DNA of 64,000 nucleotides from a virus: IMG/VR virus record IMGVR_UViG_3300032770_000017, positions 16,208 to 80,207 of that record. One strand, 5' to 3'. The position numbers and the translations under genes were made by a program. Below the pieces are notes generated by a model that was not told the DNA's origin, searched no databases, and worked only from the letters and a program-made list of their open reading frames with translations. Shown piece by piece: positions 2 through 36,998 of this stretch. Every line of letters begins with the position of its first letter. Within the stretch, counting starts at the first letter, position 1.

Positions 2-979
2 GCGGTCGACACCTGGCTGCGGATCCAGTCCTGCACCATCGGGGCCGTGACCATCGTCCCCATCCCGGCCTATCCCCAGTGCGTCATCACGCTTGCCGAT
101 CAGGCGCTCCCAGAGGCTCCCATTGCCATTGCGTCGGCACCTCCCGGCTTGCCGGCGGTGACTGCCGCTGGAGGCCCTGTAAGACCCTCTCGCAAGGCTT
201 TCGACAACCCCGGGTTCTATGTGGGCGATCCTCGTCTGGTGCGCCAGAAGTCTGGCGACTACGCGTGCCCAGCCACGGTCAGCGAGGACGGCTCGCGCTG
301 TTGGGGCCATCTTGCTGCCTGGAAGACGGCGCATACGGCCGGCGTGCGTGACGAGTACGGCCAACCACGCAAGCCCCCTCGCTCCAAGACCAACTACGCC
401 TACTTCCTCACAGGCGTTGTCGTCTGCGAGGACGGTAGCGAGGTCCCCGTGGGCAATCTGACCATGGGGACCGGACACGCCAGTGTGTACGCGCCGCTCC
501 CCGACGTGCTCGCCCACTATGACGGCGGTTACGGTGCTGTATGCGTTGCGGACGTGACGGTGGGTGAGGACGATTTCGGCATTTGGTTCGCAGGGGCCAT
601 GCGTTCGGAGCTGACCGATGAGCAACTCAGGGAGTTCAGAGCGACGAACCTGTCGGGGGACTGGCGCAACCTTGGCGGCAACCTCGAACTGGTGGCCGTG
701 CTTGCTGGCGTCCCTTCCCCCGGGTTCCCGATCGCGCGCCGAGCGGTGACGGCCGCTGGGACTCCCGTTTTCGCAGATGGCGAGGCGATGATCGCGGCCA
801 TGAACGGCGATCGCTGCCTCGCTCTTGTGGCGGCAGGGGTGGTGCAGAGGATCGATCCGTTGGAGCGACTGGCGGCTTTGGAGCGGGCCCATGAAATTCT
901 ATGGGCCGATTACCAGTCTCTCGCGGCTCGGGTACGCCCCATCGAACTGGAGCGATTGCGGGCTCAGTCGGGTCTGTGA
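2..979 (+). CDS. Capsid maturation protease-like protein, 5'-truncated by window edge
   Basis: Frame is open from base 2 (IGAVTIVPIPAY, like the HK97-type protease GAxLVxxPAF motif); GHLAAW, HYD and LSGDWR motifs typical of actinophage head-maturation proteins; upstream of major capsid. Confidence 0.7.
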   Translation, partial: AVDTWLRIQSCTIGAVTIVPIPAYPQCVITLADQALPEAPIAIASAPPGLPAVTAAGGPVRPSRKAFDNPGFYVGDPRLVRQKSGDYACPATVSEDGSRCWGHLAAWKTAHTAGVRDEYGQPRKPPRSKTNYAYFLTGVVVCEDGSEVPVGNLTMGTGHASVYAPLPDVLAHYDGGYGAVCVADVTVGEDDFGIWFAGAMRSELTDEQLREFRATNLSGDWRNLGGNLELVAVLAGVPSPGFPIARRAVTAAGTPVFADGEAMIAAMNGDRCLALVAAGVVQRIDPLERLAALERAHEILWADYQSLAARVRPIELERLRAQSGL

Positions 980-1045
980 TATAAATGGACCGGGCGGCGC
1001 CGCGAACGCCCCCGGTCCTGGCCGATCCTCTGTGGAAGGAACGAC

Positions 1046-1720
1046 ATGGTTCACGGTACCTGCTCTGTGCCAGATTGCACCAGACCCGTTTACGTGAGGT
1101 CCTGGTGTGTGGCCCATTACCAGCGTTGGCGCAAATACGGTGATCCTGCCTACCCGGTAAGAAGGACGGTGCAAAACCTCGGTTTGCCATGCAATGTGGC
1201 CGGATGTAGCCGTCCCGCCTTCCTGCGCGGTATGTGCGGACCCCACTACCGCAGGTTCAAGAGCACTGGGACGACCGATCTGAGCCCGAGGCCTCGACGG
1301 TCGAAGGGCCCCTCTATCTGCAAGATCGAAGGATGCGACTCGATCGTTGAAGCCCACGGCTGGTGCCGTGTGCATCACTGGCATTATCAAGCCCACGGTG
1401 ATCCGCTAGCAGGCCGTTTCCATGCAAAGGCTGGCGAGGGTTGGATCAACAAGAAGGGTTATCGAATGGTCCGACGGGGCAAAGGTCGGTCGAGGCCTGA
1501 GCATTGTTGGGTCATGGAGGAAATGCTCGGCCGGCCGCTAATGGTCGGTGAAGAAGTCCACCACATCAATGGCCAGAAAGCCGATAACCGCCCGCAGAAC
1601 TTGGAGTTGTGGTCAAGATCGCATCCGGCTGGTCAGCGGGTAGAGGATCTGGTCGCGTGGGCTCGGGAGATCCTGGCCCGCTACGGCGACGACTTCGTCC
1701 AGCCCAGGTTGTTGCTGTAG
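1046..1720 (+). CDS. Free-standing HNH homing endonuclease with three N-terminal CxxxxC..CxxHY repeats
   Basis: EEVHHINGQKADNRPQNLELW HNH motif; Zn-finger-like repeats. Confidence 0.9.
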   Translation: MVHGTCSVPDCTRPVYVRSWCVAHYQRWRKYGDPAYPVRRTVQNLGLPCNVAGCSRPAFLRGMCGPHYRRFKSTGTTDLSPRPRRSKGPSICKIEGCDSIVEAHGWCRVHHWHYQAHGDPLAGRFHAKAGEGWINKKGYRMVRRGKGRSRPEHCWVMEEMLGRPLMVGEEVHHINGQKADNRPQNLELWSRSHPAGQRVEDLVAWAREILARYGDDFVQPRLLL

Positions 1721-1748
1721 GCGCCTTCACAGTGGTAAGGATGGCCGC

Positions 1749-2204
1749 GTGAACACCGGCGCAGGCGTCGAAGTGGACGTGATCACCACCTGCGACCCAG
1801 AGGGCTACGGTCACGTCGGGCTCATCCTGTTGGAGGACGACGGCAAGCACCGGTGCTCGATCTGCCATGAGGAGGCCGACCCGGGCGTGGACGACGGCAA
1901 CGTGACCATCGAAACGCGGGTGACGGGTAAGGGCGCGTTGATGCCCACCCTGCGCCCACCGTGCGAGCACACCGGCGTCACGCAGCAGGTGTTCTACGCC
2001 GTCACCCGCAATGACGCGGGCGTGGTCATCGACCGGGCGGCCAAGGTCAAGCTGAGGTGCTCGTCTTGCGGGCGACCGATGCGGTGGGTCATCCCCTCGG
2101 CGCATTTCTCCGAGGTCGACGGCGAGCGGGGCCTGGTCTGTTCGGTGGTGGCGATGACCGATACCGAGGCCGAGGATGGCTGGCAGGCGGTGGCCGAGGA
2201 ATGA
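1749..2204 (+). CDS. Hypothetical protein with CxxC pairs
   Basis: High-GC3 ORF; GTAAGGAT motif just upstream of GTG (leaderless-type). Confidence 0.6.
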   Translation: MNTGAGVEVDVITTCDPEGYGHVGLILLEDDGKHRCSICHEEADPGVDDGNVTIETRVTGKGALMPTLRPPCEHTGVTQQVFYAVTRNDAGVVIDRAAKVKLRCSSCGRPMRWVIPSAHFSEVDGERGLVCSVVAMTDTEAEDGWQAVAEE

Positions 2205-2803
2205 GCGATAACGACCGCGTCGATGAGGCAGGGAATCCGCCTATCCCTCACGACGCGGACGACCATCGCATCCCCGCCCGCAAGGCCGAATGCTGCCAGG
2301 CGCACGCCGACGAGCTGGGCCGACTCCCAATAGGTTGGTGTGGGCCGGGGTGCCTGAGAAGCAGGCTGCCTGATCCGTCACCGGGCGACAAGCTGCCGTT
2401 ACCCTTCGCGGCCATGCCCACTCAACCCGTTGAGCACTGGGCCTCGGAGCCCGAAGCCCACGATTATCCGGCCGCTCTCGACTACCTGACCCTGATGATG
2501 CCTGCCAAGCAGGCCAAGGCCGCGGTCAGGGCGCTGAAGAAGGCGCCGCTCAGCCACCGTAAGGCCAAAGACCTACTCAGGGCGTCCGGCTTGGCCGCGT
2601 TGCCCAAGACGAATGTGCACGTCGCCAAAGACCTCGCCAAGGTGGCGGGAGGGACGAAGTTGTCGCCCGTCCTCATTGTGCGCGACGACACATCGGTCGG
2701 GTCATTGCTGCTTATTGCCGACGGCTACCATCGCATTTGCGCCAGTTACATAATCGATGAGAACGCCGAAATCCCCTGTCGCCTTATCTCGTCAAAGGCG
2801 TGA
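2201..2803 (+). CDS. ParB/Sulfiredoxin N-terminal-like domain protein
   Basis: SPVLIV...LLIADGYHR motif; ATG 2201 overlaps upstream stop (ATGA). Confidence 0.55.
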   Translation: MSDNDRVDEAGNPPIPHDADDHRIPARKAECCQAHADELGRLPIGWCGPGCLRSRLPDPSPGDKLPLPFAAMPTQPVEHWASEPEAHDYPAALDYLTLMMPAKQAKAAVRALKKAPLSHRKAKDLLRASGLAALPKTNVHVAKDLAKVAGGTKLSPVLIVRDDTSVGSLLLIADGYHRICASYIIDENAEIPCRLISSKA

Positions 2804-3240
2804 CCTCTAACCGCGATGAAATCGTGTTTGGCGGGCTTGATGGCCTGACCAGTGCCCTCGGCGTGATGGCCGGCGCCTACCTCGCCAACGCCCGGGCCAA
2901 GACGGTGCTGATCACCGGGCTCGGGCTCGCCATCGCCGCGGCGGTGTCCATGGCCGGCGGTGAGGCCCTGAGCGACGAGGAGGCCGATGGGCGGATCGTG
3001 CGGGCGGCATACATGGGCGGCGCTACCTTGGTCGGGTCGTTCCTGCCGATCGCCGGGTTCATCTTCGACCGCCGTGCCGGGCTGGTGTTCTGCATCGTGA
3101 TCACGGTGTGCGTGGGCGCCACTGTTGCCCATCTGCGCCCCGGCGCCTGGTGGCCATCGATCGTCAAGACCTTCGCCGTACTGGCGGTGGCGGCTGGGCT
3201 ATCGGTGGTGGCAGCGGTCGCGATGGGGGCCACGGGTTAG
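2800..3240 (+). CDS. VIT1/CCC1-family membrane protein
   Basis: RDEIVFGGLDGLTSALGVMAG and GLAIAAAVSMAGGEALS are VIT1-type signatures; about 5 hydrophobic segments. Confidence 0.75.
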   Translation: MTSNRDEIVFGGLDGLTSALGVMAGAYLANARAKTVLITGLGLAIAAAVSMAGGEALSDEEADGRIVRAAYMGGATLVGSFLPIAGFIFDRRAGLVFCIVITVCVGATVAHLRPGAWWPSIVKTFAVLAVAAGLSVVAAVAMGATG

Positions 3241-3309
3241 GCCATCACACCCCCTCTCGTGCGCCCCGCATAGCGTTGCGGCGCCCCCTTCGGAGCGAGG
3301 AGCCCTCCC

Positions 3310-4365
3310 TTGCGCAGATTCCTACTGGCCGCCATTGCCGCTGTGCTCGTCCTCTCTGCCTGCTCGGGGGGCACGAAGGGAAAGCCGCCCGTCCCGGCTG
3401 TGTCAGGCACCGTTGTCGGCGTATCTCTTTCCGCAAATGCCGCCAATAGGTACATGGCTGCAGGCGCGGTGTGGAACGTCTTTTGCCCGAACAAGCTGAC
3501 CTCCTCGCAGATCGCCTCCAATGAGGTCCACCTCGTTTGCGCCGTCCCGGCGACGACCACGACGGCGCCCGCGACCACCACAACGGTGGCTCCCACCACG
3601 ACTCGGCCAGCGACAACCACGACGTTGCCCGGCGGCACGACGACCGTGCCCGCGACCACGACGACCACCGTTCCGGCCACCACCACGACGGTCCCGACCA
3701 GTGGCACCTGTACGAGCCCGGTGTGGTCGAGCAGCGACGCTCAGGCCACCGACAACACCGACAGCGCCGGGTACTGGTGGGTGAACAACGACGCCTGGTC
3801 GGGCAGCCACGGCCCGCAGACGATCAACGTGTGCAGCGCGTCGTCTTGGTACGCGGTGTCCAACCAGACCGATCAGCAAGGCGCGGTTGAGACCTATCCC
3901 GACACCGAGTATTTCGTCGGCGGCGGCGGTGGGGGCCACACGACCAAGACCATCTCGCAGTTCGCCAGCATCACTTCGACGTTCTCCGAGGCGTTCCCCA
4001 CCACGACCGGCTTGTCGTGGGACGCGGGCTACGACCTGTGGACGAACAACTGGACGAATGAAACGATGATCTGGAACCAGTGGGTCGGCGACCCGGGCTA
4101 CTGGCCAGGACAGGCGACCATCGCCGTGACGCTCGATGGCGTGCCCTACCACTTCCTCGACAACGGCGGCGAGCTGCTGTTCTTCAGGGACACGCAGGTC
4201 GCCTCGGGCTCCGTGGACATCCTCGCTGCCTACCAGTGGGAGGTCGCCCACGGCTACGCCAAGGCCACCGACATCCCGACCAATCTGGAGTACGGCGTGG
4301 AGGTCGTGGGCACGAACGGTGCGACCACATTCCCGCTGACCGGTCTGACCTTCAGCCTGTCGTGA
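3310..4365 (+). CDS. Lipoprotein with Thr-rich linker and GH12-like glycoside hydrolase domain
   Basis: Lipobox LSAC; poly-TTT linker; YWWVNNDAW, AGYDLW, ETMIW and YGVEV match the GH12 pattern with two Glu. Confidence 0.7.
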   Translation: MRRFLLAAIAAVLVLSACSGGTKGKPPVPAVSGTVVGVSLSANAANRYMAAGAVWNVFCPNKLTSSQIASNEVHLVCAVPATTTTAPATTTTVAPTTTRPATTTTLPGGTTTVPATTTTTVPATTTTVPTSGTCTSPVWSSSDAQATDNTDSAGYWWVNNDAWSGSHGPQTINVCSASSWYAVSNQTDQQGAVETYPDTEYFVGGGGGGHTTKTISQFASITSTFSEAFPTTTGLSWDAGYDLWTNNWTNETMIWNQWVGDPGYWPGQATIAVTLDGVPYHFLDNGGELLFFRDTQVASGSVDILAAYQWEVAHGYAKATDIPTNLEYGVEVVGTNGATTFPLTGLTFSLS

Positions 4366-4682
4366 CCCCCTTGCGCGCCGTCGCCACCCGGGCAGTCAGT
4401 GAGCCCCGTCACTGGCCGCTGCGCAAGGTGGCGGCGATCGGGCTCCCGTTGCTGCTGCTCGGCGCCCTCGGGATCACGCTCGGCCTCCTGGCCCACGCCC
4501 ACCACACCTACCGCACCGTGGTCCAGACGGCCACGGTCGGCGCCCAGCCGGCGACGGTGCACGCGGCCCCCACGGACCCGCAGAACACGATCGCTCTAGT
4601 GACCTGTGTCTGCGGCGTGGTCGCCACCCTGACCGGCGTGGGGACGTTCGTGGTCAGCCTGCGCAAGGCCCCAGCCTCGTGA
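4362..4682 (+). CDS. Small membrane protein (2 TM)
   Basis: GTG overlaps upstream stop; two hydrophobic stretches. Confidence 0.5.
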   Translation: MTPLRAVATRAVSEPRHWPLRKVAAIGLPLLLLGALGITLGLLAHAHHTYRTVVQTATVGAQPATVHAAPTDPQNTIALVTCVCGVVATLTGVGTFVVSLRKAPAS

Positions 4683-5149
4683 AACTGCACCGGCCTCATC
4701 CCCATCCGGCCGTCCGGCGACCCGACCAACTGACCCGGGGCGAGCGGGCGGCCGACGTGATGAAGGGCGCGCTGGCGACCTGGGCCGCGCTCGGGTTCAT
4801 GGCGGCATTCATTGCCGGGTGGATGGTGCTCAATAGCCACCTTGCGGGGCGTAGCCACCACTTCGATCCATATCCCTGGATCCTCCTGAACCTCTGCCTC
4901 TCGACCTTGGCCGGGCTGCAGTGCTTCGTGCTCCTGATCGCCAACCGCCGGGGCGAGCAGATCGCGGCCGAAATCGCCGTGGCCACCAAGAACAACACCG
5001 ACGGGATCGCGGCGGAACTGGCGGTCAATACGACCCTCACCAAGGCCGTGCAGGCCAATACCGACCAGATCGCGGAGGTGCACCGCCACGTCACGGCCCT
5101 CACCCGGCACCTCAATGTGCCCGCCGGGCGGTTCGATCCCGATACCTGA
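4679..5149 (+). CDS. DUF1003-family membrane protein
   Basis: FDPYPWILLNLCLSTLAGLQ signature. Confidence 0.8.
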   Translation: MKLHRPHPHPAVRRPDQLTRGERAADVMKGALATWAALGFMAAFIAGWMVLNSHLAGRSHHFDPYPWILLNLCLSTLAGLQCFVLLIANRRGEQIAAEIAVATKNNTDGIAAELAVNTTLTKAVQANTDQIAEVHRHVTALTRHLNVPAGRFDPDT

Positions 5150-5311
5150 TCACTCCGCGCCATTGACGCGTTGTGGTATCTATCTGAGGGACCGCCCGAC
5201 GTAGTTGGACGGTCGCAGCACCTCCGGTCCATAGGTGCCGGGTGGACGAGCCGACGCCGCCACAGGCAGGCGCATCCCGTTCCGACCGCGCCCAGAACCG
5301 GAGGACAACCC

Positions 5312-7576
5312 GTGGACGCACTGCACATCAACCGATTCGCTGCGTTCGCCGCCGATGGCTCGATGACCAGCCTGGTGGCCGAGGGGCTGCCCGAATGGCC
5401 CACCGACGGCGCCCTCGGAGCGATCGCCGATGCCGACCTGTACGCGATGGAGCAGGCGTACCTCGCCGAGTTCGCCGCCATCGAAGCCGACCCGTCCCGC
5501 CCGGTGGGCGACGCCGTGGCCCTCGCCGAGCACGTTCGTGCCCTGCGCGACGAGGCCGAGCGCCGTATGGCCGCCGAGCCCGTCCCTGAGCCCACGGCCG
5601 AGGAACTGGCCGCCCAGGCCGCAGCCGATGAGGCCGCGGCCGCGCTCGCCGCCGAGCGGGAGGCCCAACTGGCCGCCCTGCGCGCCGAGATCACCCCCGA
5701 GCCCGGTGCGGGCGAGACCATCCCCGAGGGCACGGCGTTCAGCCGCGAAGACCTCGTGGCCGCCGTCACCGCCGGTGCCGAAGCCGCGGCACGGGCCATC
5801 GTGCCCGCCGTCACCGCTGCCATCGCCCAGGCTGCCCCGGTCACCGAGCCGGCCCCTGGCGTCACGATCACCCGCATGCGGGCCCGTGACCTCGGTGGCT
5901 ATCGCCCCGACCACCTCGCCCCGGCGCCAGCCAACGGCGCCGAGCGCAGCCGGTTCACAGCCAAGGTCGTCTCAGCCACCGACTCGTCCGCGGTCGGCCT
6001 CGGCGGCGAGATCCAGACCATGGACCAGCTCGTGGACATCTTCACCGAGAAGGCTCTCGCCATCGGGCGGGCATCCGGTGTGGACAACGAGCAGGTCAAG
6101 TTGGCCTCGATCAAGCTCGACCGGGTGCCGCCGGAGATGGACCTGCGCGGTATCACCGACGGCCGGGAACTGCGCCGCAAGGTGCTGTCGGTCATCGGCC
6201 CCGAGGCCGTTGGCGTCAACCCGTGGACCGGCCGTGAGGCCCCCATCGGGCGCGGCGGTGTCGTGCACGTCGGAGAGGGCCTGGTCGCATCCGGCGGGTT
6301 GGCCGCACCGGTCGAGCCGTACTACAACCAGCTCGTCATCGCCCAGGGCGCACGCCCTGTGCAGGCGGCGTTGCCGACCTTCGTGGCCGAACGAGGCGGG
6401 ATCAAGCTCACGCTGCCTCCCTCCATCGGCACGATCGCGGCGGCCACCACGCCCGGGCAGTACACCGACGGTGTGACCAACACCGATACCTCGCTGGTGT
6501 CAGCCACGGCCACCTTCACCGCCGCCGATGCCGGCTCGTACATCTCCGGCTCGCCGACGATCTTCGCCGAGGGCACGATCATCGCCAGCGTCACCAACTC
6601 GACGACGGTGGTCCTGTCGGCGGCCACGCTCACGACCACCACGGGCGTGACCTTCGTGATCCAGCGGCGCAACCCTTACAACCTCGGGCCTGCCGTTGGT
6701 GTCGTCACCGCCGCCCAGGACGCCGCAGGGCCGCCGAACGTGATCAAGTACACCTACGACGTGCCCGTCGGCACGCAGAACGAGTACGACGTCTATTCGG
6801 TCTACACGTCGCTGCAGTTCGGCAACCTGACCGGGCGCACCTTCCCCGAGCAGGTGGAGGCCAACATCCGCGTCGCCGACGCGCTGGCCGCCCGGACCGC
6901 GGACACGCAGATGCTGAACCTCATCAGCCTCTACTCGACGCTGTTCACCGGGGCCAAGACGTTCGGCACGGCACGCCAACTGCTCGCCCAGTTGGGCCAC
7001 ATGGGAGCGGTGTACCGCAACTCCGAGCGTATGGACCCGAGCGCCGTGCTGCGGGTGCTGCTGCCGGCGTGGGCGATCAACGCCATGCGGGGCGACTACA
7101 TCGCCTCGTTCATCGGTGGCGGCGACGCCTGGGGCCTCTCCGACGACGAGATCGCCGGGTGGCTGGCCGACAACCACTTCATGCTCAGCCTCTACCAGGA
7201 CGGCCCGACGGACATCTCGCAGCTCTTCGTCACCACCGGCTTCTCGGGGGCGACGGGCAACGGGACCACGCTCGGGACGCCGATCGCCATCCCCGACTAC
7301 CCGGGCACTGGCGCGACCACCTCGTTCCGCACGCAGGTGATCTCGTTCATGTGGGCCGAGGGGACGTGGCTCGGGCTGACCACCGGGGAACTGAATTTGG
7401 GCCTAGTTCGGGATAGCATACTCAATTCACAGAACCGATACCGTCAATTCTCTGAAGTGTGGGAGACTCCCGCTTTCGTGGGAACTCGCACGCTGCGGGG
7501 AGAGCACACGGTTGCGGCAGACGGCAGCTACGGCGCCGCCGTGTCGGTCACTCTTGGGGCCGGCAACGGGCTCTAG
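5312..7576 (+). CDS. Major capsid protein with N-terminal Ala/Glu-rich scaffold-like region and inserted S/T-rich domain
   Basis: GGAGGA RBS before GTG 5312; LVASGGLAAP, LPTFVAERGGI, FPEQV and LNLGLVRDSILNSQNRY motifs of actinophage capsids. Confidence 0.85.
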   Translation: MDALHINRFAAFAADGSMTSLVAEGLPEWPTDGALGAIADADLYAMEQAYLAEFAAIEADPSRPVGDAVALAEHVRALRDEAERRMAAEPVPEPTAEELAAQAAADEAAAALAAEREAQLAALRAEITPEPGAGETIPEGTAFSREDLVAAVTAGAEAAARAIVPAVTAAIAQAAPVTEPAPGVTITRMRARDLGGYRPDHLAPAPANGAERSRFTAKVVSATDSSAVGLGGEIQTMDQLVDIFTEKALAIGRASGVDNEQVKLASIKLDRVPPEMDLRGITDGRELRRKVLSVIGPEAVGVNPWTGREAPIGRGGVVHVGEGLVASGGLAAPVEPYYNQLVIAQGARPVQAALPTFVAERGGIKLTLPPSIGTIAAATTPGQYTDGVTNTDTSLVSATATFTAADAGSYISGSPTIFAEGTIIASVTNSTTVVLSAATLTTTTGVTFVIQRRNPYNLGPAVGVVTAAQDAAGPPNVIKYTYDVPVGTQNEYDVYSVYTSLQFGNLTGRTFPEQVEANIRVADALAARTADTQMLNLISLYSTLFTGAKTFGTARQLLAQLGHMGAVYRNSERMDPSAVLRVLLPAWAINAMRGDYIASFIGGGDAWGLSDDEIAGWLADNHFMLSLYQDGPTDISQLFVTTGFSGATGNGTTLGTPIAIPDYPGTGATTSFRTQVISFMWAEGTWLGLTTGELNLGLVRDSILNSQNRYRQFSEVWETPAFVGTRTLRGEHTVAADGSYGAAVSVTLGAGNGL

Positions 7577-8421
7577 GAGTCGTCGCCTTGTCCCTTTCGC
7601 CTCGCTCGGCTCTCTGCGGCCTGCACCCGTCGGTACTCGCGCGCCTCATCGGGCGTCAGGTCACGGCTGCGTTTGCCGAAGAGGCGAAAGGCCAGCGTTC
7701 CTCGGTAGTACTCCTCGGTGGTCTCCCGGCCATCGAGGAGTCGCTGCCGGTCGCGCTGGGCTTGGGACTTGGCTCGGTCGAAGGTTCTTCTTTCCTCCGG
7801 CGTGAGGTCACGAAGCCGCTTGCCGAACATCTGCCAGGCGGGCGTCTCGTGCACCCATCGGGAACTGGAGCCCTGAACGCGCGGGCCATGTTGGAGGAAT
7901 GCAGTGAGCAGTTCGTGCGCCCGTTCCTTGCGCCGGGCGCCAAGCCATGCCCAGAAAAGGCAGACGATGTGCTGGAACTCTTCGTGACTGCCGACCTGCC
8001 AGATCAGGATCGGTTTGCGGCCACCGGGCCGTTCCTTCGGTCCAGTGATGCTGCCGACCTGCACGATGGCAGCGAAGCGCTCGACTACGTCGTAGTCGGT
8101 CATCGCCAGTGTCGCCGTTGGCCCACCGCGGCCAGGGCTCCTAGAGAAACATCCCTCTCCCTCGAAGAGCGCGGCCGCCCAAGCGATTTCGGCCGCGCTC
8201 GGCATCACGAAAGATGCTCGGATCTTTCGCACTGGGACCGGCTCCGGTTTGCGCCCGCGTTGCTTGACCACCAGGGGATCACCCCATCGGTGGTAGCGAC
8301 GGGCATGCTTCCCGCAGAGCGGCTCGCCTTCGGCGCCGGTGCCGTTGGCTGCTCGTCCACAGACGACGCCATCCTCAATGACGGCGCAGGCCTTGCCGAG
8401 AACCTCGTTACGCTGACTCAT
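7573..8421 (-). CDS. Free-standing LAGLIDADG homing endonuclease, antisense
   Basis: AEIAWAAALFEGEGCF motif; N-terminal LCGKHARRYHRWGDP; own TATAAT and GGAGG upstream. Confidence 0.85.
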   Translation of the reverse strand: MSQRNEVLGKACAVIEDGVVCGRAANGTGAEGEPLCGKHARRYHRWGDPLVVKQRGRKPEPVPVRKIRASFVMPSAAEIAWAAALFEGEGCFSRSPGRGGPTATLAMTDYDVVERFAAIVQVGSITGPKERPGGRKPILIWQVGSHEEFQHIVCLFWAWLGARRKERAHELLTAFLQHGPRVQGSSSRWVHETPAWQMFGKRLRDLTPEERRTFDRAKSQAQRDRQRLLDGRETTEEYYRGTLAFRLFGKRSRDLTPDEAREYRRVQAAESRARRKGQGDDS

Positions 8422-8507
8422 GTCGGACCTCCTCACAGGTTCGGCCGGGGCCGGGGGTGCGCAAACACCGCCCGGCCCTCCCATTATAGCAAGTGTAGGA
8501 GACGGCC

Positions 8508-9890
8508 ATGAGCGGGCCGACCATGTCGAGCGTCGTTGGGGTCGATTACACCCTGGACCCGGGACCGCCGCTCAAACTGCCGCCCCTCTCGTTGCTGTCG
8601 TTGGCATCGCCGTTGGTGGACATCGACGACCTGATTGGGCAGCAGCAGCAGGCGGCCGAGATGGTCCTGTCGGCACAAAGCGACCTGAGCGCCCTCGAAG
8701 CGCCCATGGATGCCGACGAGTCGATCGACACGCTGGAGCGCCAGCAGGCCACAGAGGCCGCGCAGAACCGCGTCCAGGAGGGCGAGGCGTGGCTGTCGGC
8801 GGTCAACAAGCGCCTGGCCGAGGTGCAGCGCTGGGAGCACGGGTTCCAGTACCTGCCCGAGTTATCCCAGTCGGCTGGCATGTCGATCTTCGCCCCCGAC
8901 GGCGACCCGGCCATCACCAACCCCACCGTCGGCGCGATCAAGACGGTCGGGCCCAATCAGACGGCGTTCGCGTGGTACGACCCCTTCCAGGTGGTCGCCC
9001 TTGATTCGCGGTCGCTGTTCGGCTGGCCCAACACCGACTTCGCCTCACGGTCGCGCCGTGCCCTGCGGGCGCTGCAGAACCACGAGTCGTGGGACGTGGA
9101 GCAGGAGTTCTGGAGCGGGAGCAGCATCCCGACGAACTACCACCTCTCCGCATCGCCCAGCACGCCGACCACATCACCGCACCGCACGGTCACGGGTTGG
9201 CCCAACCCCACCGCCGCGTCAGGGACCACGCTTGGGACCGCGGTCGGGCTCGGTGCGTCGTTGGCCGCGCTTGACCAGTCAATCGCAGACGCAGACGCGG
9301 GCACCGGTGTCATCCACGCCACGCCGTACCTCGTGCAGCGCTGGGCGTCGGTGTACTCGTACCTGCGGGACTCCGACGGCCACGTCTACACGGTCAACCA
9401 CAACCTGATCCTGGCGGGCTACGGCTACCCGGGCACCGGTCCCGACGTGGCCTCGCGCACGGTCACAGACGGTGTGCTGGCGTCGACCACCACCGTCACG
9501 AGCGCCACCGCCAACTTCACGAACTTCGACATCGGCTCATCCATCTCCGCTGCCGACGGAAAGATCCCGGCTGGCGCCTACATCGTGAGCGTCACCAACT
9601 CCACAACCGTGATCATCTCGGCCGCGGCCACGGCATCGGAGTCCGGGGTCACGATCACCATCGGCGCGTCGCAGGCCCACATCGGCGGCAACCGCTACCA
9701 GTGGGCCTACGCGACCGACTGGCTCTACACCTGCGCAGGCGCGGCCCAGATCTACCCGTGGGACTTCCGCCAGGGCTCACCCGACGTGCCACTCGACAAC
9801 CTCGCCGAGATCCGCGTGGAGCGGAGCTGGGCCGTGCTTACGAACCAGTTGCTCAGAGCCGCCGTCCTCGTCGACACCGGCACGGCATAG
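8508..9890 (+). CDS. Virion structural protein (minor capsid/decoration-like) with inserted S/T-rich domain
   Basis: Between capsid and tail tube; RWEHG, GVIHA, GYGYPGTGP and WAYAT motifs. Confidence 0.6.
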   Translation: MSGPTMSSVVGVDYTLDPGPPLKLPPLSLLSLASPLVDIDDLIGQQQQAAEMVLSAQSDLSALEAPMDADESIDTLERQQATEAAQNRVQEGEAWLSAVNKRLAEVQRWEHGFQYLPELSQSAGMSIFAPDGDPAITNPTVGAIKTVGPNQTAFAWYDPFQVVALDSRSLFGWPNTDFASRSRRALRALQNHESWDVEQEFWSGSSIPTNYHLSASPSTPTTSPHRTVTGWPNPTAASGTTLGTAVGLGASLAALDQSIADADAGTGVIHATPYLVQRWASVYSYLRDSDGHVYTVNHNLILAGYGYPGTGPDVASRTVTDGVLASTTTVTSATANFTNFDIGSSISAADGKIPAGAYIVSVTNSTTVIISAAATASESGVTITIGASQAHIGGNRYQWAYATDWLYTCAGAAQIYPWDFRQGSPDVPLDNLAEIRVERSWAVLTNQLLRAAVLVDTGTA

Positions 9891-9902
9891 AAAGGAACGG
9901 CC

Positions 9903-29750: not shown

Positions 29751-29840
29751 GACCAGATCCTAAGGTTCCGAAAGCGTGGCGGCGAAATGACAACGTTTGG
29801 GCACCCACGGAAGGCGGCCGAGGTGCCACGCTCGGGGCCG

Positions 29841-30152: not shown

Positions 30153-30445
30153 CGGGCTGGGCGGTCGAGAACTGGCTCCTGGTCGACGGCCGATGCGCTC
30201 TCGCCGGCTTCGACCCGTTGGCGCTCCCGGCGCGCCGGCTCATCTCAGTGCTGTACTGCATGCTCGTGGACCAGCCGGTATTCACCGAGGAAGCGGAGAA
30301 GCACCGCCAGGACATCATCATTGCCTTGGAATGGCCCGAGGTCGGCGAACAGATGCAGCTCGAAGCCGACGACAAGCAGGCGCGCGCCGCGCTGGCACAA
30401 TTCGGCATTTCCCTGCCAGTCGGTATCGAGTTCGTACCGGAATGA
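30126..30445 (+). CDS. Tail assembly chaperone -1 frameshift extension (GT)
   Basis: -1 frame open without its own start (PYAAVQALTGWAVENWLLVDGR); candidate slip at CGC CCT ACG. Confidence 0.65.
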
Positions 30446-30454
30446 GCGCCTGAG

Positions 30455-33100
30455 ATGCCTTCGATCATTGGCACGGCCTTTTTGGATGTGCGACCCGAGA
30501 CGACCAACTTCGAGTCCGATCTGAAGAAGAAGATCTCCGGCTTCGGCGGCATCGCCCCCGTCATCGGCACCTTGGCCGCCGCCGGTGTCGCAGTGGGCGG
30601 CGCGCTGTTCGACATCGGCTCCAAGTTCGAGGATGCATTCAACAAGATCAAGGTGGCCACCGGTGCGACCGGCTTGCAACTGGCCGGGCTCGGCGTGTCA
30701 TTCAAGGACGTGTTCTCCAAGAGCGCGTCGTCAATGACAGATGTGGCCACCGCTATCTCCGAGGTCTCGGTCCGCACCCATCTGACCGGTACTGCGCTCG
30801 ACGACCTGTCCAAGAAGTTCGTCGACCTGAGCCGCATCACAGGCACCTCGGTGGCGACGAACGTGCAGACGGTCACGGCGCTGTTCAACAACTTCGGGGT
30901 GGCGACAAAGAACCAGTCGGCTGAGCTGGACGTGCTGTTCAAGGCCGCCCAGCAGTCAGGGGTGGGCATCGACAACCTCGTCTCCTCGGTGCAGGCGGCG
31001 ACGCCCACCGCCCAGACCCTCGGGCTCAACATCAACCAGACGACCGCGCTCGTCGCCCAGTTGACCCAGGCGGGATTACCGGCGACCAAGGTGATGATGG
31101 GCCTGGGCATGGAGTTCGCCAAGGCGGCCAAGGCCGGGCAGGACCCGACCTCAGTGATCGCCAAACTGGTCGCCGAGATCAAGGCGGCACCGAACGCTAC
31201 CGACGCGGCGACGTTGGCGGTCAGAAACTTCGGCGTGAGCGCGCGCCAGGCGGCCACGCTGGTCGATGCTGTGCGGGCGGGGACCCTGAACTTCGGCGCC
31301 ACGCTTGCGTCAATTACGAGCGGTGGCGGGGGGATCGAAGCGGCCACGAATGCCACCTTGACCCTCGGTGACAAGTTCAAGATCCTGCGCAATACCGCGC
31401 TCACCGCGTTGGAGCCGATCGCCATGAAGGTGGTCGACTTCGCCAACTTGCTTGCCGACAGGATCCCGGGCGCCATCCGTACGACTGTCGATGTGATCAA
31501 GGGTGCTATCGGCGGCCTTGTCGGCGGCTTCAGCGGCCAGGCACTCGCCGCCTCTGGGTTCGTGCGGGTATTCGGTGAGATCGGCCGCACGGCCCGCGAC
31601 ATCTTCGACTTCATCCGTGCCCACAAGGCCGAGGTGCTCGGCGCGCTCGCCGGTATCGGTGCGATTGTCCTCAGCGCAGTGATCCCGGCCTTTGTCGGTT
31701 GGGCTGCCGCCGCGGGTGCCGCTGCTGCCGCGACCATTGCCGCCGCTGCGCCCTTCATCGCCGCGAGTGCCGCTGCCGCCGCTGTGGGCTACGGCCTCGT
31801 CTACGCCTACACACACTTCGTGATCTTCCGCGACATCGTGAAGGACGTTGCCAAGGTCATCGTGGACGTGGCGGTGTTCGCGTTCCGTCAGGTGCGGTTG
31901 GAGATCGAGACGGTCGTCGCCGTGTTCACCGACCTGATCAAGTTCTTCTCTGATGTCTTCCAAGGCAAGTGGTCGGCAGCGTTCAAGGCGCTAGAGGACA
32001 TTCCCAAGCGACTCTTCGAGTACGTGCGGGATACGGTGGGCAACATCGTCAAGCTGTTCGAGAGCCTTCCCGCTCAGGTGCTTGGCGGGATCGAATCTCT
32101 CGGCGGCGCGATCGGCCGGTTCTTTGAGGGGTTACCTGCGGATGCGGTGACTGGGCTCAAGACGCTCGGCAGCGCCCTGTTGACCGCGTTCAAGAACGGC
32201 ATCGTGGCACTCGTCACCGGGCTACCGGGCCTGCTCATTGACGTAGCCGTGTTCTTCGAGGTGAAGCTACCGCTGCTCATCCTCGAATGGACCGCCAATG
32301 CTGCTGTGTGGCTTGCCGGTGTCGGGGTGAAGTTGATCGTCGGGTTCGTCTCCGATCTCATCTCGGCGCTGCCCACCGTGGCCAAGTTCTTCCTGGACCT
32401 GCCGGGCGAGATCCTCACCTTCATCGGCAATGCCGCGCTGTGGCTCGTGCACGTCGGCATGGACATCCTCACCGGTCTGTGCAACGGGCTTATCGCCACC
32501 GTGCCCGCGCTGTTCCGGTTCTTCACCGGCCTACCGAGCAAGATCCTCGACCTGCTCAAGGACGCGGGGACATGGCTCGTCAAGGTGGGCCAGGCCATCA
32601 TCGACGGGCTGATCAAGGGCATCGGCAACGAGGCCGGGAAACTGGAGTCGAAAGTCAAAGATTCGATCCTCGGGCCGATCAAGAAGATCCCGATCGTCGG
32701 TGGCCTGATCGGTTCACCGTCGCCCTACTTCACGACCGTCGGCGAGGCCATCGTGCAGGGCCTGGCGCTCGGCATCGCCAACAAGGCGAACCTGCCGCAA
32801 CAGGCGTTGGCCGGCGTGAAGATCGGCGGTCCCACTGTCGCGCCGGTCGGCCTCGGGACGCCATCGGCGATCGCAGCGGCAGGCCCGACGGCCGCGACCA
32901 CCGCGACGACAACGGCGCTGGCGACGCAGACCAAGGCCACGATGACAACCAATGACATTCTCAAGGAGATCCTCGCTTTCATCCGAGAGCAGGCGTTGAC
33001 CGCCAACGCTGCCGTGACCCAGAACACGCAGGCACTGAAGGCTTCGACGACGGAGTCGATCCTGGCCCTGCGCGCCGAGCAGGTCCAGAGAGGCCGCTGA
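30455..33100 (+). CDS. Tape measure protein
   Basis: 881 aa Ala/Gly-rich helical protein with aromatic periodicity; IGSPSPYF motif. Confidence 0.92.
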   Translation: MPSIIGTAFLDVRPETTNFESDLKKKISGFGGIAPVIGTLAAAGVAVGGALFDIGSKFEDAFNKIKVATGATGLQLAGLGVSFKDVFSKSASSMTDVATAISEVSVRTHLTGTALDDLSKKFVDLSRITGTSVATNVQTVTALFNNFGVATKNQSAELDVLFKAAQQSGVGIDNLVSSVQAATPTAQTLGLNINQTTALVAQLTQAGLPATKVMMGLGMEFAKAAKAGQDPTSVIAKLVAEIKAAPNATDAATLAVRNFGVSARQAATLVDAVRAGTLNFGATLASITSGGGGIEAATNATLTLGDKFKILRNTALTALEPIAMKVVDFANLLADRIPGAIRTTVDVIKGAIGGLVGGFSGQALAASGFVRVFGEIGRTARDIFDFIRAHKAEVLGALAGIGAIVLSAVIPAFVGWAAAAGAAAAATIAAAAPFIAASAAAAAVGYGLVYAYTHFVIFRDIVKDVAKVIVDVAVFAFRQVRLEIETVVAVFTDLIKFFSDVFQGKWSAAFKALEDIPKRLFEYVRDTVGNIVKLFESLPAQVLGGIESLGGAIGRFFEGLPADAVTGLKTLGSALLTAFKNGIVALVTGLPGLLIDVAVFFEVKLPLLILEWTANAAVWLAGVGVKLIVGFVSDLISALPTVAKFFLDLPGEILTFIGNAALWLVHVGMDILTGLCNGLIATVPALFRFFTGLPSKILDLLKDAGTWLVKVGQAIIDGLIKGIGNEAGKLESKVKDSILGPIKKIPIVGGLIGSPSPYFTTVGEAIVQGLALGIANKANLPQQALAGVKIGGPTVAPVGLGTPSAIAAAGPTAATTATTTALATQTKATMTTNDILKEILAFIREQALTANAAVTQNTQALKASTTESILALRAEQVQRGR

Positions 33101-33101
33101 C

Positions 33102-33626
33102 ATGGCTGGCCCCACCGGTGCGACCGGCACGACCGGATCGGTCACGCCTTCGAGCGGCCGCCTGTGCCCGGACCTGTCGATGGGCACGCTCACCATCTCG
33201 GGCGTGGAACTGGTCAACACCTATGCCTGGTCGATCACCGACCTGCGGCCCCTGTGGGACTCGGCCGATGTACGTGGCACCGACCGCATCCTGCCCGGCG
33301 TCATTGGCGTGATCCCCTATCAGCGCCGCTGGACGGTGACGAAGATTAACCTGCCCATGGTCATCTCGGGCTACGTCGACCAAGCCGGGTCGATCTATGA
33401 CAACCCCTTCGTCGGGCTGCAGGTCAACCAGGCGTACCTGCTCGACAACGTCGTCGCCCCCGTCGGTTCCAACCCTGGCACGCGCCCGGCCGTGCTCACC
33501 ATGCCTGACACCACCACGCGCTCGGGCGACGTGACGGTGGAGACGCTCAAGTTCGGGCCGATGGCCGGCGCCATCTCCTGGCCCTGCGTGCTCGTGATCA
33601 GCATCCCTGGAGGGATGCTGACGTGA
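33102..33626 (+). CDS. Distal tail (Dit)-like protein with N-terminal GPTGATG tag
   Basis: Directly after tape measure; VRGTDRILPG motif. Confidence 0.65.
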   Translation: MAGPTGATGTTGSVTPSSGRLCPDLSMGTLTISGVELVNTYAWSITDLRPLWDSADVRGTDRILPGVIGVIPYQRRWTVTKINLPMVISGYVDQAGSIYDNPFVGLQVNQAYLLDNVVAPVGSNPGTRPAVLTMPDTTTRSGDVTVETLKFGPMAGAISWPCVLVISIPGGMLT

Positions 33627-33648
33627 GGCGCGGAAGGGGTGACCCGCG

Positions 33649-34056
33649 ATCAACCAAGTAACACCCTTCTGCAGGCAGGAGTTCCTCGCCGCCGCGGCCA
33701 ACTGGCAGTCCGACACATTCCGCATCGTGGCGGTGTCCTCGGGCTACTCGTTCTCCACGAGCGACCACTACCTGTCGGCCATCTCCGGTGGGGACATCAT
33801 CGCCACCTCGGCCGCGCTCACCAGCACCGACCCCACCGACGGCAACGCTTCGGCCGATCCGGTGGTGTTCTCCTCGGTCGGCGCGGGCTCGACCATCGCC
33901 GGGTTGTGGCTCTACCGCGACACGGGATCGAGCAGCACGTCGCAACTGCTGGTGTGGTGGGACCAGGACGCCACCAACTTCCCGTTGGCCATCGTCACCA
34001 ATGGTGGAGATATCACGTTGACGTTCCCAAGTGGGGGGACCTTATTTATACTATGA
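33649..34056 (+). CDS. Virion structural protein (family of 20776-21435); start codon anomalous
   Basis: NWQSDTFRIVAVSSGY...NGGDITLTF; conserved-looking N-terminus has no in-frame ATG/GTG before 33727. Confidence 0.6.
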   Translation: MNQVTPFCRQEFLAAAANWQSDTFRIVAVSSGYSFSTSDHYLSAISGGDIIATSAALTSTDPTDGNASADPVVFSSVGAGSTIAGLWLYRDTGSSSTSQLLVWWDQDATNFPLAIVTNGGDITLTFPSGGTLFIL

Positions 34057-34085
34057 CGTCGCCCTCGTTTGCTATGATGTTGTCC

Positions 34086-34748
34086 ATGCGAACCAAATCT
34101 CCGCTCGTTTACGAGGATGAGCATGGGCAGTGGTGGTACAAGACGGCGACCGGTGCTCGGCAGCGCGCTGTGATACGGAATTGCTCCACCTGTGGTGAGC
34201 AATTCGTGTGCAGGTCAACAAAGGCGAGCCCCTTCTGTTCGGAGGCATGCTGGCGACGTACATGCCTGACCTGCAACACGGTGTTCACCCCATCAACGAC
34301 ACGGCAGCAATATTGCAGCTACAAGTGCCGGCGCGGGACGCGCACCTGTATCGAGTGCGGACGTGTGTTTATTACCGTGGCAAACAGCCATGGGAAATAT
34401 TGCTCGCAGGAGTGCCACTACAACCACAAGGTGCCGGTTGGGTCCGTCCGGTTACTCAAGCGAACCGGTTACACCATAATCAAGCTCCCCTTTGGCCGCT
34501 ATGGCGGGGCAGGTGGCAAATATCGTCGTGAGCATTGGATGCTAGAGCATCGATACGTGATGGAGCAGATAATTGGGCGACCACTTCTCCCGTCCGAGCA
34601 TGTTCACCACAAGAACGGCGATCGCGCGGATAACCGTCCAGAGAATCTAGAGCTCTGGAAGAACAAGAGCGGTAAGGGCGGGCATCCCTACGGCGTTCGT
34701 CTTGACGATTATCACTGTCCCGGTTGCCGATGCGGGGAAGATCGATGA
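34086..34748 (+). CDS. Free-standing HNH homing endonuclease with CxxC repeats
   Basis: EHVHHKNGDRADNRPENLELW; lower GC; TATGAT upstream of ATG. Confidence 0.9.
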   Translation: MRTKSPLVYEDEHGQWWYKTATGARQRAVIRNCSTCGEQFVCRSTKASPFCSEACWRRTCLTCNTVFTPSTTRQQYCSYKCRRGTRTCIECGRVFITVANSHGKYCSQECHYNHKVPVGSVRLLKRTGYTIIKLPFGRYGGAGGKYRREHWMLEHRYVMEQIIGRPLLPSEHVHHKNGDRADNRPENLELWKNKSGKGGHPYGVRLDDYHCPGCRCGEDR

Positions 34749-34785
34749 CGTTCCCGAGCGGCGGGACCTTGTTCGTTCTTTAGCG

Positions 34786-35085
34786 ATGCCGTCCTCCACC
34801 GTCGCCGCAGCGCCCGCTCAGAGCCTCACAGAGGCCCCCATCTCGTCGTCGAGCTACACGGTCAACACCGTCTACCCGCCCGCCTCTGGCGCCCTTGCAG
34901 CGGCCCCTATCGCCCTCGCCGCACTGGACACCGTCACCGGCGCGCCGGCTGTGGCTCTAGCCGCGGCCGGAGTGCCACCGAGCCCCAACTCCACCACAGC
35001 GGCCGTAGCTGCCGGTGCGCTCAGCGCCACGCCTGGGCCGACTGTCGTGACGCCGACCTCCTACGTGATCGGGACGGCGACATGA
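34786..35085 (+). CDS. Ala/Thr-rich hypothetical tail protein
   Basis: ORF coupled to downstream tail gene. Confidence 0.5.
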   Translation: MPSSTVAAAPAQSLTEAPISSSSYTVNTVYPPASGALAAAPIALAALDTVTGAPAVALAAAGVPPSPNSTTAAVAAGALSATPGPTVVTPTSYVIGTAT

Positions 35086-36368
35086 CCGGCGCGGTGGCCT
35101 TCGGGCCCACGATCACCCAAAGCGGCATCACCCCGCCGCCTGTCTACACACCGGCGATCACCTGCGGGGTCTACGACCGCTCGGGGACGTTGCTCAAGGC
35201 GCTCCCCAACTCCTACAACCGCCACTGGCAGGACCAGCTCAATGTGGAGGGCACCGGCTCGGCGGTGGTGCAGATATTCGACCCGACCACGGAATTGATC
35301 GTGTCGTGCGACATCCCATGGCGCTCTATCCTGATCTTCTCGATCGACACCATCCCTCGCTACGCCTCGATCATCGAGCACATGGTGGAGAAGCTCGTCG
35401 CCCAGGGCGAAGAGGTGGACGAGACGCTGGAACTGTCCGGGCGCGGGACGTTGGCGCTGTTCGAGGAGGCGGTCTGCTACCCGGAGAACGGCCTCAGCCG
35501 CCAACCCTTCACCGACACCCGCCTGTTCTCCTACGCGTCGATCGACTTCGATGACTCCATGTGGGCCTCGGCCGTGCAAGTCAAGCTCCAATCGGACCCG
35601 ACCTCGGGCCTGCCGTGGGACGGGGCGCCACAGGACTGGCCGGACCACAACGCCTATTGGATCTGGGACCGCGCGGTCACTTCCGCCACGCCCTGGCCGA
35701 CGGGCAATGTGTACTTCCGAAAGCAGATCACCATTCCCTCCGGTGGCGATGTGGTGCGGTTCTTCATCACCGCCGACGATGGTTTCGAGTTGTACGTGGA
35801 CGGCGGCCTGCTCCAGAGCGACACCGAGGCGTACCTGTGGGGGGTGACCAGACAGGTCGATCTCTTCCTCGACAGTGGGACTCATCTCGTCGCGATCAAG
35901 GGCACGAACCTGTCGCGGGCCTCGTCGAGCACGAACTATGCCGGCATCATCTGCTCGATGTACGTCGCCAATGGCGACGGCTCGCTGGGCGGCCTCATCG
36001 CCCACACCGACTCGTCATGGAAGATGCTTGCCTATCCGCCCAATCCGCCTGGCTACACCGTGGGGCAGATCCTGCGCATCCTCACCGAAGAGGCCCAGGC
36101 GCGGGGGACGCTATCAGGGATCAGTCTTTCGTTCAATGACACCAACGACTCCAACGGCGTTCCCTGGGCGACGCTGGCCGAGGTGCCGATACAGGTGGGC
36201 GACGACATGCTGACCACGATCAAGCAATTGGCTTCGGCCTATTGCGACGTGGCCATGGGCATCGGCACGCCCGTCCTGTTCGCCTACAACACGCGCGGCA
36301 GTTCGGTGAGCACCACCTTCTCCCGCGGCGTGAACCTGGGCGACTGGACGCAGGATGGCGCGGTCTAA
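35082..36368 (+). CDS. Minor tail protein with inserted lectin-like beta-sandwich
   Basis: WQDQLNVEGTGS tail motif; insert VYFRKQI...ITADDGFELYVDG. Confidence 0.7.
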   Translation: MTGAVAFGPTITQSGITPPPVYTPAITCGVYDRSGTLLKALPNSYNRHWQDQLNVEGTGSAVVQIFDPTTELIVSCDIPWRSILIFSIDTIPRYASIIEHMVEKLVAQGEEVDETLELSGRGTLALFEEAVCYPENGLSRQPFTDTRLFSYASIDFDDSMWASAVQVKLQSDPTSGLPWDGAPQDWPDHNAYWIWDRAVTSATPWPTGNVYFRKQITIPSGGDVVRFFITADDGFELYVDGGLLQSDTEAYLWGVTRQVDLFLDSGTHLVAIKGTNLSRASSSTNYAGIICSMYVANGDGSLGGLIAHTDSSWKMLAYPPNPPGYTVGQILRILTEEAQARGTLSGISLSFNDTNDSNGVPWATLAEVPIQVGDDMLTTIKQLASAYCDVAMGIGTPVLFAYNTRGSSVSTTFSRGVNLGDWTQDGAV

Positions 36369-36455
36369 ATGGCCCAGAACGGTATGCTTGAACGACGTTG
36401 TCCCCGCGCTGCTGGCGCAGCCGGGGACGTGCCCGAACCTTGCTGGAGGTCCGAG

Positions 36456-36998
36456 ATGGTCAAGCGTATATGCCTCAAGCCCGATTGTGGTCGTCCGGTG
36501 CTCGCGCGGGGTCTTTGCGGTCGTCACTATCAGCAGTACCGCAATAGTCCCGAATGGCAGCCGATGGAGCCTTTGACTGTAGAGCAACGGTTTTGGATGA
36601 AGGTCACCACGCAGGGCAGTATCCCGCCGTTCCGTCCAGACCTAGGACCATGTTACGAATGGACAGGAGGCAAAGGACATGGCGGTTATGCACTGTTCCA
36701 TCCTGTCGCGGGCGTATCCGCTCCTGCTTACCGATGGATTTATGAGCAGGAGAACGGAGCAGTCCCCAAGGGACTTGAGTTGGATCATCTGTGCCGAAAC
36801 CCTGGTTGTGTGCGTCCATCGCACTTAGAGGCCGTCACTCACCTGGAGAACGTTCGGCGTGGGGTTGATGCCTACGAACTGAAGGACACCTGTCGACGTG
36901 GTCATTCCATGATTGGAGTGACTCCGTCGAGCGATGGCTACCGCCATTGTCTTGCCTGTCGCCGATTGACGTGGCGTGCGAGGAGGGGAAGGACATAG
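36456..36998 (+). CDS. Free-standing HNH homing endonuclease
   Basis: ELDHLCRNPGCVRPSHLEAVTHLEN; CRRGH; GGAGG RBS. Confidence 0.9.
   Translation: MVKRICLKPDCGRPVLARGLCGRHYQQYRNSPEWQPMEPLTVEQRFWMKVTTQGSIPPFRPDLGPCYEWTGGKGHGGYALFHPVAGVSAPAYRWIYEQENGAVPKGLELDHLCRNPGCVRPSHLEAVTHLENVRRGVDAYELKDTCRRGHSMIGVTPSSDGYRHCLACRRLTWRARRGRT

Follow-up and report, generated by a model that had tools for sequence, protein, structure and literature searches.

A portable two-hairpin cassette heading genes of selfish DNA enzymes in GC-rich, actinophage-like viruses

Three leaders in one viral genome

This work concerns the leaders of three nuclease genes in a stretch of viral DNA of 64,000 nucleotides (the window), which comprises bases 16208-80207 of the 80,207-bp IMG/VR virus record IMGVR_UViG_3300032770_000017 and has a G+C content of 66.7%. 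The genes start at 1046 on the plus strand, at 8421 on the minus strand and at 36456 on the plus strand, and each of their leaders represents one copy of a cassette that spans about 115 bases and is uncatalogued. A first-pass annotation of the window had described a shared leader at these genes, and the strings quoted there were found exactly as written. Each leader comprises a -10-like hexamer, a GC-rich hairpin (hairpin 1, P1) and a second stem (hairpin 2, P2), in which ACCU or UCCU pairs with AGGU or AGGA of the Shine-Dalgarno sequence (SD), as had been claimed. The pattern CCGAWCCT-N3-8-GGARG occurs three times in the window compared to 0.05 times expected from shuffles, and a longer pattern that also requires an ATG was found only at the leaders of 1046, 8421 and 36456 across the whole 80,207-bp record. 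A covariance model built from the members of the family described below scored 64-75 bits at the three leaders, while the next match in the genome reached 13.6 bits with an E value of 0.5. According to a run look-up, a wetland metagenome is the sole public sequencing run that holds the DNA of the window.

The first cassette follows a portal/MuF-like gene (47-979), with the sense -10-like TATAAA located 1 nt past its stop codon (980-985, plus strand). This hexamer is a near-match only and not a TANNNT, and no E. coli-type -35/-10 pair is present there. P1 (987-1018, plus strand) is a GC-rich stem of covarying sequence, whereas P2 (CCGATCCT..AGGAACGA, 1022-1044, plus strand) overlaps the SD GGAAGGA and shows a compensated U-A variant in place of an A-U pair. 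The gene behind it (1046-1720, plus strand) encodes an HNH_3 endonuclease with an N-terminal zinc-ribbon-like motif, and its codons 3-5 contain a backward-facing -10 hexamer (1053-1058, minus strand), which reads ACGGTA in the sense and TACCGT in the antisense direction.

The second cassette lies on the minus strand, and its sense -10 TATAAT (8488-8483) is directly preceded by TGC, resembling an extended -10. Its position is within the 86 bp that separate the gene at 8421 from the divergent gene 8508-9890. P1 comprises 8449-8477 and P2 8423-8444 (CCGAACCT GTGAGG AGGTCCGA), the latter overlapping the SD GGAGG. The nuclease-like gene (7573-8421, minus strand) combines the N-terminal zinc-ribbon-like motif with LFEGEGCF, which is LAGLIDADG-like, and is oriented opposite to the flanking head genes. 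In its codons 3-5, sense AGCGTA corresponds to a backward-facing TACGCT on the plus strand (8409-8414).

In the third cassette, all on the plus strand save the backward-facing hexamer, the sense -10-like TATGCT (36383-36388) lies 15 nt past the stop codon of a tail-protein gene (35082-36368), followed by P1 (GTCCCCG..CGGGGAC, 36400-36428) and by P2 (CCGAACCT TGCTGG AGGTCCGA, 36433-36454), which again overlaps the SD. The HNH_3 endonuclease gene (36456-36998) carries the same sense AGCGTA, antisense TACGCT, in codons 3-5 (36463-36468, minus strand).

The three genes had been regarded as unrelated. Their catalytic domains differ, but they are not wholly unrelated, since an N-terminal C..C..C..H zinc-ribbon-like motif is common to all three. 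In the form C-x4-8-C-x9-14-C-x2-H..GDP it opens the nucleases at 1046-1195, 8272-8421 (minus strand) and 36456-36605, and the same start was also observed in several family members elsewhere. In some lineages, this N-terminal module and the cassette may travel jointly. The LAGLIDADG assignment of the 8421 gene is weakly supported: the motif LFEGEGCF speaks in its favor, but the match to Pfam LAGLIDADG_3 (E 0.0099) lies below the cut-off, and the protein matches PHROG 5046, which is labelled 'HNH endonuclease'. An AlphaFold prediction of this protein without alignment had a mean pLDDT of 38.6, so that the model was unusable, and a sequence search of the PDB gave nothing useful.

The genes that bear the leaders are flanked by virion genes, namely the portal/MuF-like gene, a major head protein and a tail protein. 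Since the open reading frames (ORFs) on both sides of the HNH gene at 36456 (window 35082-37819) cover successive parts of the tail-protein family phrog_31834 (14-375 upstream, 422-569 downstream), this gene may have split a tail gene. With the tail protein as query no relative free of the HNH insert was found, and the cassette boundaries could consequently not be set by comparison. A megablast search of all three gene regions against cultured phages yielded no match. The only relatives found for the major capsid protein are about 31% identical and belong to phages of Arthrobacter, Gordonia and Microbacterium, and therefore the host is probably an actinobacterium.

The leader does not accompany every HNH gene, for three further ones in the same genome (about 34086-34748, 46940-47569 and 54071-54496) are without the cassette. 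At the fourth HNH_3 gene (window 34040-34748, ATG at about 34086) a TATGAT ends 7 nt before the ATG with no SD in between, which suggests a leaderless mRNA. The fifth HNH_3 gene (46940-47569, GTG start) has a leader of a different kind (46810-46942) with a TAGGAT hexamer, a long hairpin formed by CCTCCTCCG and CGGAGGAGG, and GAAGGAGG. The CCTCCTCCG arm is anti-SD-like and the CGGAGGAGG arm SD-like. This leader may represent another anti-SD design of the genome, unrelated to the cassette.

A family of structured leaders

An exact scan of IMG/VR for CCGAACCT-N3-6-GGAGGTCCGA returned 12 loci, and all 12 share one layout, which in the 5' to 3' direction consists of a more AT-rich stretch that mostly contains a TAnnnT, a GC hairpin of varying sequence, a spacer of 2-10 nt, the conserved module and, 0-3 nt further on, the start codon. 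Further copies of this layout were obtained by a degenerate scan with two pairing positions left free, by a metagenome scan and by a scan anchored on the 3' arm, the start codon and the downstream hexamer only, while the covariance model added a diverged second or third copy for some of these genomes. Altogether, the family comprises at least 43 distinct copies on uncultured viral and metagenome contigs. The set used in the following consists of 43 aligned copies and one copy with a long P2 loop, 44 in total. In the metagenome scan about 15 of the 113 distinct matches, among the 120 loci listed, were true members, and the counts are lower bounds.

Several candidates were set aside. A pattern scan of bacterial and archaeal genomes gave 120 hits, which were judged to be chance matches, as the family layout was absent save in one doubtful case (L137) and the free positions were evenly split. 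The locus L061, which precedes a head-tail adaptor gene and scored 22.5 bits, is a doubtful member and was left out of the final alignment. Two kinds of deviating copies were observed beside the regular ones. A diverged second copy at L043:2393-2530 shows an ATC at the position of the start codon, followed by an open reading frame of the zinc-ribbon type, so that the gene is either in decay or uses a rare start codon. Furthermore, three copies (L317:8247-8327, L324:5335-5416 and L326 at about 6650-6743) have a P2 loop of 13-16 nt containing CCCCTTAG or CCACCTAAG compared to the usual loop of 6 nt.

No counterpart of the family was found in Rfam. No match at gathering score was found in the whole window, and five leader-bearing loci gave no match to Rfam 15, int-alpA included, at E values up to 1.

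Matches of a full leader to cultured phages in a blastn search comprised only a P1-like hairpin without the P2 module and were thus not accepted as family members. Such GC hairpins (GCGGCCCCGCG..CGGGGCC) are located directly after stop codons in the Mycobacterium phages Phayonce and Butters, and in an intergenic region, again without the P2 module, in Arthrobacter phage Zucker (L070:1196-1235, L072:1196-1235 and L071:1199-1230 for the three phages). They probably belong to a common type of actinophage intergenic hairpin or terminator. This resemblance raises the question whether P1 is a terminator of the actinobacterial type, poor in U-tracts, which would insulate the inserted gene against transcription coming from the operon around it, or this operon against the gene, while P2 would only mark a strong ribosome-binding site. 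The position of P1 in two of the window copies, where it follows the upstream stop codon at a distance of 7-31 nt, fits such an insulator as well. Nonetheless, no T-run follows P1 on the gene strand, an efficient terminator within the operons for head and tail proteins would deprive essential genes further downstream of transcription, and neither the conserved 5' arm of P2 nor the backward-facing hexamer would be explained, so that we consider an insulator improbable.

The structure of the cassette is supported by compensatory changes. RNAalifold predicts both P1 and P2, and the covariation score of the 43-copy alignment was 0.413 compared to 0.093 in shuffles, of which none out of 500 reached 0.413. 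Standard pairs make up 95% of the cells of this alignment, and changes on both sides were found for all seven pairs of P1 and for three of the six pairs of P2. One P1 pair is G-C in 24 copies and C-G in 19, and the score collapses once the partners are slid by one column. It has to be considered that the alignment was fitted to the covariance model, which favors the structure; a test based on MAFFT with the first 15 sequences agrees with it. Within P2, the A-U pair is changed to U-A in seven copies and never broken, while the U-A pair closing the loop is changed to C-G in three copies and broken as C·A in three others. The degenerate scan, which admitted matched and mismatched combinations equally, points in the same direction: the W5/W4' pair was matched in all 18 members, defined by independent criteria, compared to about half of the hits outside the family. 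A copy found by the model alone shows a further compensated pair of P2 arms (CACC/GGUG). The first-pass description of a portable RNA module common to different nuclease families is thus borne out by at least 43 copies with differing hairpin-1 sequences, and the module is structured and covarying.

The A-T/T-A and T-A/C-G swaps in P2 preserve the symmetry of the DNA as well as the pairing of the RNA. The imperfect inverted repeat CGaACCT-N6-AGGTcCG could be an operator, bound by a dimeric repressor of the transcription of the downstream gene, with P1 as a separate element; both P2 arms are also nearly invariant across very different contigs. In contrast to what a dimeric DNA binder would tolerate, the length of the spacer or loop ranges between 3 and about 16 nt. 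The half-sites are consistently asymmetric (A versus C at one or two places), the element occurs in very diverse phages with no common regulator gene seen adjacent to it, and the covariation and the strand bias of P1 would be left unexplained. An operator is therefore regarded as very improbable.

The genes headed by the cassette are of many kinds. Nucleases with a Pfam or PHROG match are located behind 19 of the 44 copies and include HNH_3 with or without NUMOD4 or AP2, HNH/HNH_5, GIY-YIG with NUMOD3, DUF559/MTES_1575, endonuclease VII, one TnpB (OrfB_IS605 with a Cas12f1-like TNB domain) and the one LAGLIDADG-like protein. The other copies precede five weak or truncated nuclease-like ORFs, four tyrosine integrases and 16 ORFs without assigned function. 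The proposed link to endonuclease genes has to be widened accordingly: the cassette is strongly enriched at genes of selfish DNA enzymes, but with four integrases and 16 unknown ORFs among 44 it is not specific for endonucleases. The TnpB gene (IS605 OrfB, L038:1501-2655) lies no more than about 1.2 kb from the end of a phage record of 98.9 kb that has direct terminal repeats. Therefore, a gene for an RNA-guided nuclease uses the same head as the genes for homing endonucleases.

Strand asymmetry and a fixed hexamer in the first codons

The two strands of the cassette are not equivalent. Folding of both showed P2 to have the higher stability in antisense orientation in 42 of 43 copies and P1 in 36 of 43, with a mean ddG of 2.6 kcal/mol in favor of the antisense strand for P1 (Wilcoxon p 4e-7). 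In P1, 55 G·U pairs were counted on the antisense strand compared to 7 on the sense strand (binomial p 2e-10). P2 carries two conserved mismatches on the sense strand, both of the A·C type, and a sense A·C mismatch corresponds to a G·U pair on the opposite strand. In the 5' arm variant CCAGACCT, present in four aligned copies and one with a long loop, the A·C mismatch is shifted by one place and never removed. The RNAalifold consensus amounts to -23.5 for the antisense and -18.3 for the sense strand, and the combined fold of P1 and P2 to -35.4 and -27.7 kcal/mol, respectively.

The second asymmetry is found in the first codons. Among the 36 copies that were collected without regard to this region, 25 contain ANNNTA at position +8 (21 copies) or +7 (4 copies) of the coding sequence, while within +1 to +150 the hexamer occurs at most once at any other position. 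None of 59 controls, which were pattern hits outside the family followed by a start codon, showed it at +8 or +7 (Fisher p 1e-14), and it was also present in one copy found by the model alone. An alignment of the first codons gave A at +8 in 26 of the 36, T at +12 and A at +13 in 24 each, C at +14 in 24 and C at +15 in 22, with no base preference at +9 to +11. The fixed hexamer spans unrelated proteins (HNH, endonuclease VII, integrases and unknowns), and codon 4 ends in T in 24 of 36 copies despite a G+C content of 65-70%. Hence, the constraint acts on the nucleotides and not on the protein. Read backwards, ANNNTA is a TANNNT preceded by GG, and TANNNT is what Cortes et al. reportedly described in 2013 as the main promoter determinant in actinobacteria.

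Upstream, the 10 nt before P1 comprise 41% A and 16% T on the gene strand, which results in a U-rich tail on the antisense strand. On the gene strand, a TANNNT was found 7-26 nt before P1 in 21 of the 36 copies, at a variable distance.

This sense hexamer leads to the first-pass reading of the leader, in which an mRNA would start from the upstream -10, P1 would be a stabilizing hairpin at its 5' end and P2 would throttle translation by partly sequestering the SD in cis. P2 is indeed present in the minimum-energy fold of every copy, with three to five of the five SD bases paired and a mean probability of 0.32 for an unpaired SD, and the compensatory changes in P2 are in line with this function. 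There is also a precedent in phage T4, since homing endonuclease genes of the T-even group have hairpins at their ribosome-binding sites (PMC2988022). Against a leader that works on the sense strand alone, P2 is weak there, with a mean dG of -5.7 kcal/mol, its conserved mismatches are all A·C, and sense G·U pairs are rare (7 versus 55). Furthermore, the distance from the -10 to P1 is not fixed, 15 of the 36 copies comprise no TANNNT at all, and the fixed ANNNTA in codons 3-5 of unrelated genes would have no explanation. We therefore hold a leader of this type for rather unlikely, while noting that it is compatible with control by an antisense RNA, as the folds of the two strands are mirror images. 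The cis-regulatory hairpin of the first-pass annotation stands in so far as P2 overlaps the SD and shows compensatory swaps; its low stability of about -5.7 kcal/mol on the sense strand, with 3 of 5 SD bases paired, and the conserved A·C mismatches do not support the assigned role in its original form.

A putative antisense brake and its relation to known systems

Because the A·C mismatches of the sense strand become G·U pairs on the opposite strand and a backward-facing -10 is fixed in codons 3-5, the data point to an antisense RNA that would act instead of, or alongside, a simple hairpin in cis. In viruses that are rich in G+C and resemble actinophages, the cassette of about 115 nt would travel at the 5' end of genes for selfish DNA enzymes (homing endonucleases, TnpB and integrases), with the following order on the gene strand: often a -10 hexamer, then P1, P2 with the SD as its 3' arm, the start codon and the backward -10 in codons 3-5. 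From the latter, a promoter would fire an antisense RNA of about 75 nt, which we regard as the simplest explanation for the features taken together. Its predicted start, about 6-7 nt past the backward hexamer, would lie at the start codon, 2-3 nt before the mirror image of P2. The 5' stem-loop of this putative RNA would thus be the stable mirror of P2, containing CCUCC, and its end the mirror of P1, which together with the U-rich tail could serve as terminator. Its complementarity to the ribosome-binding site and the start codon would be complete, so that it would anneal to the mRNA of the nuclease gene and block or destabilize this message. The G·U pairs on one strand and the A·C mismatches on the other would allow one DNA sequence to specify both a stable antisense RNA and a weak hairpin in the mRNA that can be opened. 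In the sense and the antisense reading alike, the cassette would limit translation, and we give an even chance to a brake on the translation of the selfish gene that resembles RNA-OUT of IS10.

A number of observations weigh against this antisense model. The backward hexamer is absent in 11 of the 36 copies. The tail of the predicted antisense RNA averages about 4 U in 10 (mean 4.1 T) and is poor in some copies, including 36456. At the inverted cassette of 8421, the antisense direction coincides with the direction of the main operon of the phage, where a terminator would be awkward. E. coli-type scans of both strands of the three window copies detected no promoter and no canonical terminator. 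Among the public runs with this DNA, no RNA run was found, and the only source is a DNA metagenome. Since P2 is partly fixed by the search patterns, its asymmetry amounts to about one observation, and only that of P1 is independent across lineages. Finally, the sequence of both P2 arms is near-invariant and the G·U is never replaced by G-C, for which pairing alone is not sufficient and which neither the antisense nor the sense model explains. This hints at a further, sequence-specific partner, which may be a protein, an RNase or rRNA.

In an extended form of the antisense model, the conserved unit would be an autonomous gene for an antisense RNA, about 95 nt in length and composed of the backward -10 in codons 3-5, the 5' stem-loop with CCUCC and the terminator hairpin, and placed on the leader and first codons of unrelated genes for selfish DNA enzymes. 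It could then sense copy number and act as a brake similar to the multicopy inhibition of IS10, a proposal which we put forward tentatively. As the stems are shared and the loops differ, cross-talk might take place between the antisense RNAs of several cassettes in one genome.

The closest model for such a mechanism is the pair RNA-OUT/RNA-IN of IS10/Tn10, for which antisense control of the transposase mRNA has been experimentally demonstrated (PMC5006887). Similar to IS10, the cassette has face-to-face promoters, here predicted, at the 5' end of the gene for a selfish DNA enzyme, and the putative antisense RNA would be a stem-loop of about 70 nt complementary to the translation initiation region, which could act in trans and in this way sense copy number. 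The convergent promoter within the 5' coding region, as in IS10, has its counterpart at the level of the sequence (25/36 versus 0/59). Unlike in IS10, where the antisense RNA was demonstrated, it is a prediction here; the two systems share no sequence similarity, the cassette heads many gene families and not one transposase, and the host is probably not enterobacterial. No Hfq is known from actinobacteria.

For the T-even phages, hairpins that sequester the ribosome-binding site and have embedded late promoters were described at the homing endonuclease genes I-TevI, I-TevII, I-TevIII, segB and mobE of Aeh1 (PMC2988022). In both cases, an RNA structure close to the promoter overlaps the SD of phage nuclease genes, either free-standing or intron-borne, and the same logic is common to different nuclease families. 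In the T-even genes, however, the hairpin is strong and the late promoter lies inside or after it, so that late transcripts escape. The cassette has its sense -10 ahead of the two hairpins, its SD hairpin shows little stability on the mRNA, its GC-rich sequence is unrelated, and a predicted promoter faces backward; no T4 late-promoter motif is present at the cassette.

A link between an antisense RNA and a homing endonuclease gene is also known for cyanophage S-PM2, where CfrI links psbA to F-CphI (Millard et al. 2010, as cited in PMC12197685). Similar to the putative RNA of the cassette, CfrI is a phage-encoded antisense RNA that is physically tied to a homing endonuclease gene. It is reported as a single locus of one cyanophage lineage and, unlike the family described here, not as a portable cassette at the 5' end of genes. 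The Rfam motif int-alpA and other catalogued cis-regulatory RNA motifs of phages are comparable in that they are structured, located upstream of genes for integrases or other mobile elements and of putative function, whereas no cassette copy that was tested matches any Rfam family.

Literature searches on the motif strings and on antisense control of homing endonucleases revealed no description of the cassette and no family shared across nuclease types. The kinds of mechanism are already known, both for the antisense control of selfish-gene translation and for the hairpins at the ribosome-binding sites of homing endonuclease genes. Absent from Rfam and from the literature covered by the searches are the family of sequences and structures, its wide distribution among gene families and the design on two strands.

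The dose of homing endonucleases, TnpB and integrases is of consequence for a phage with such genes, as these enzymes cut DNA, and their restraint is known in detail only for a few genes of the T4 family. If the proposed control is true, the cassette would be another answer to this problem, unrelated to that of T4, in a distinct group of phages that has received little study. As a defined RNA family of about 115 nt it could be added to Rfam, and it would represent a compact, portable control part for hosts of high G+C content. The presence of the same cassette on at least six nuclease families and on integrases implies a modular exchange of regulatory heads among selfish genes.

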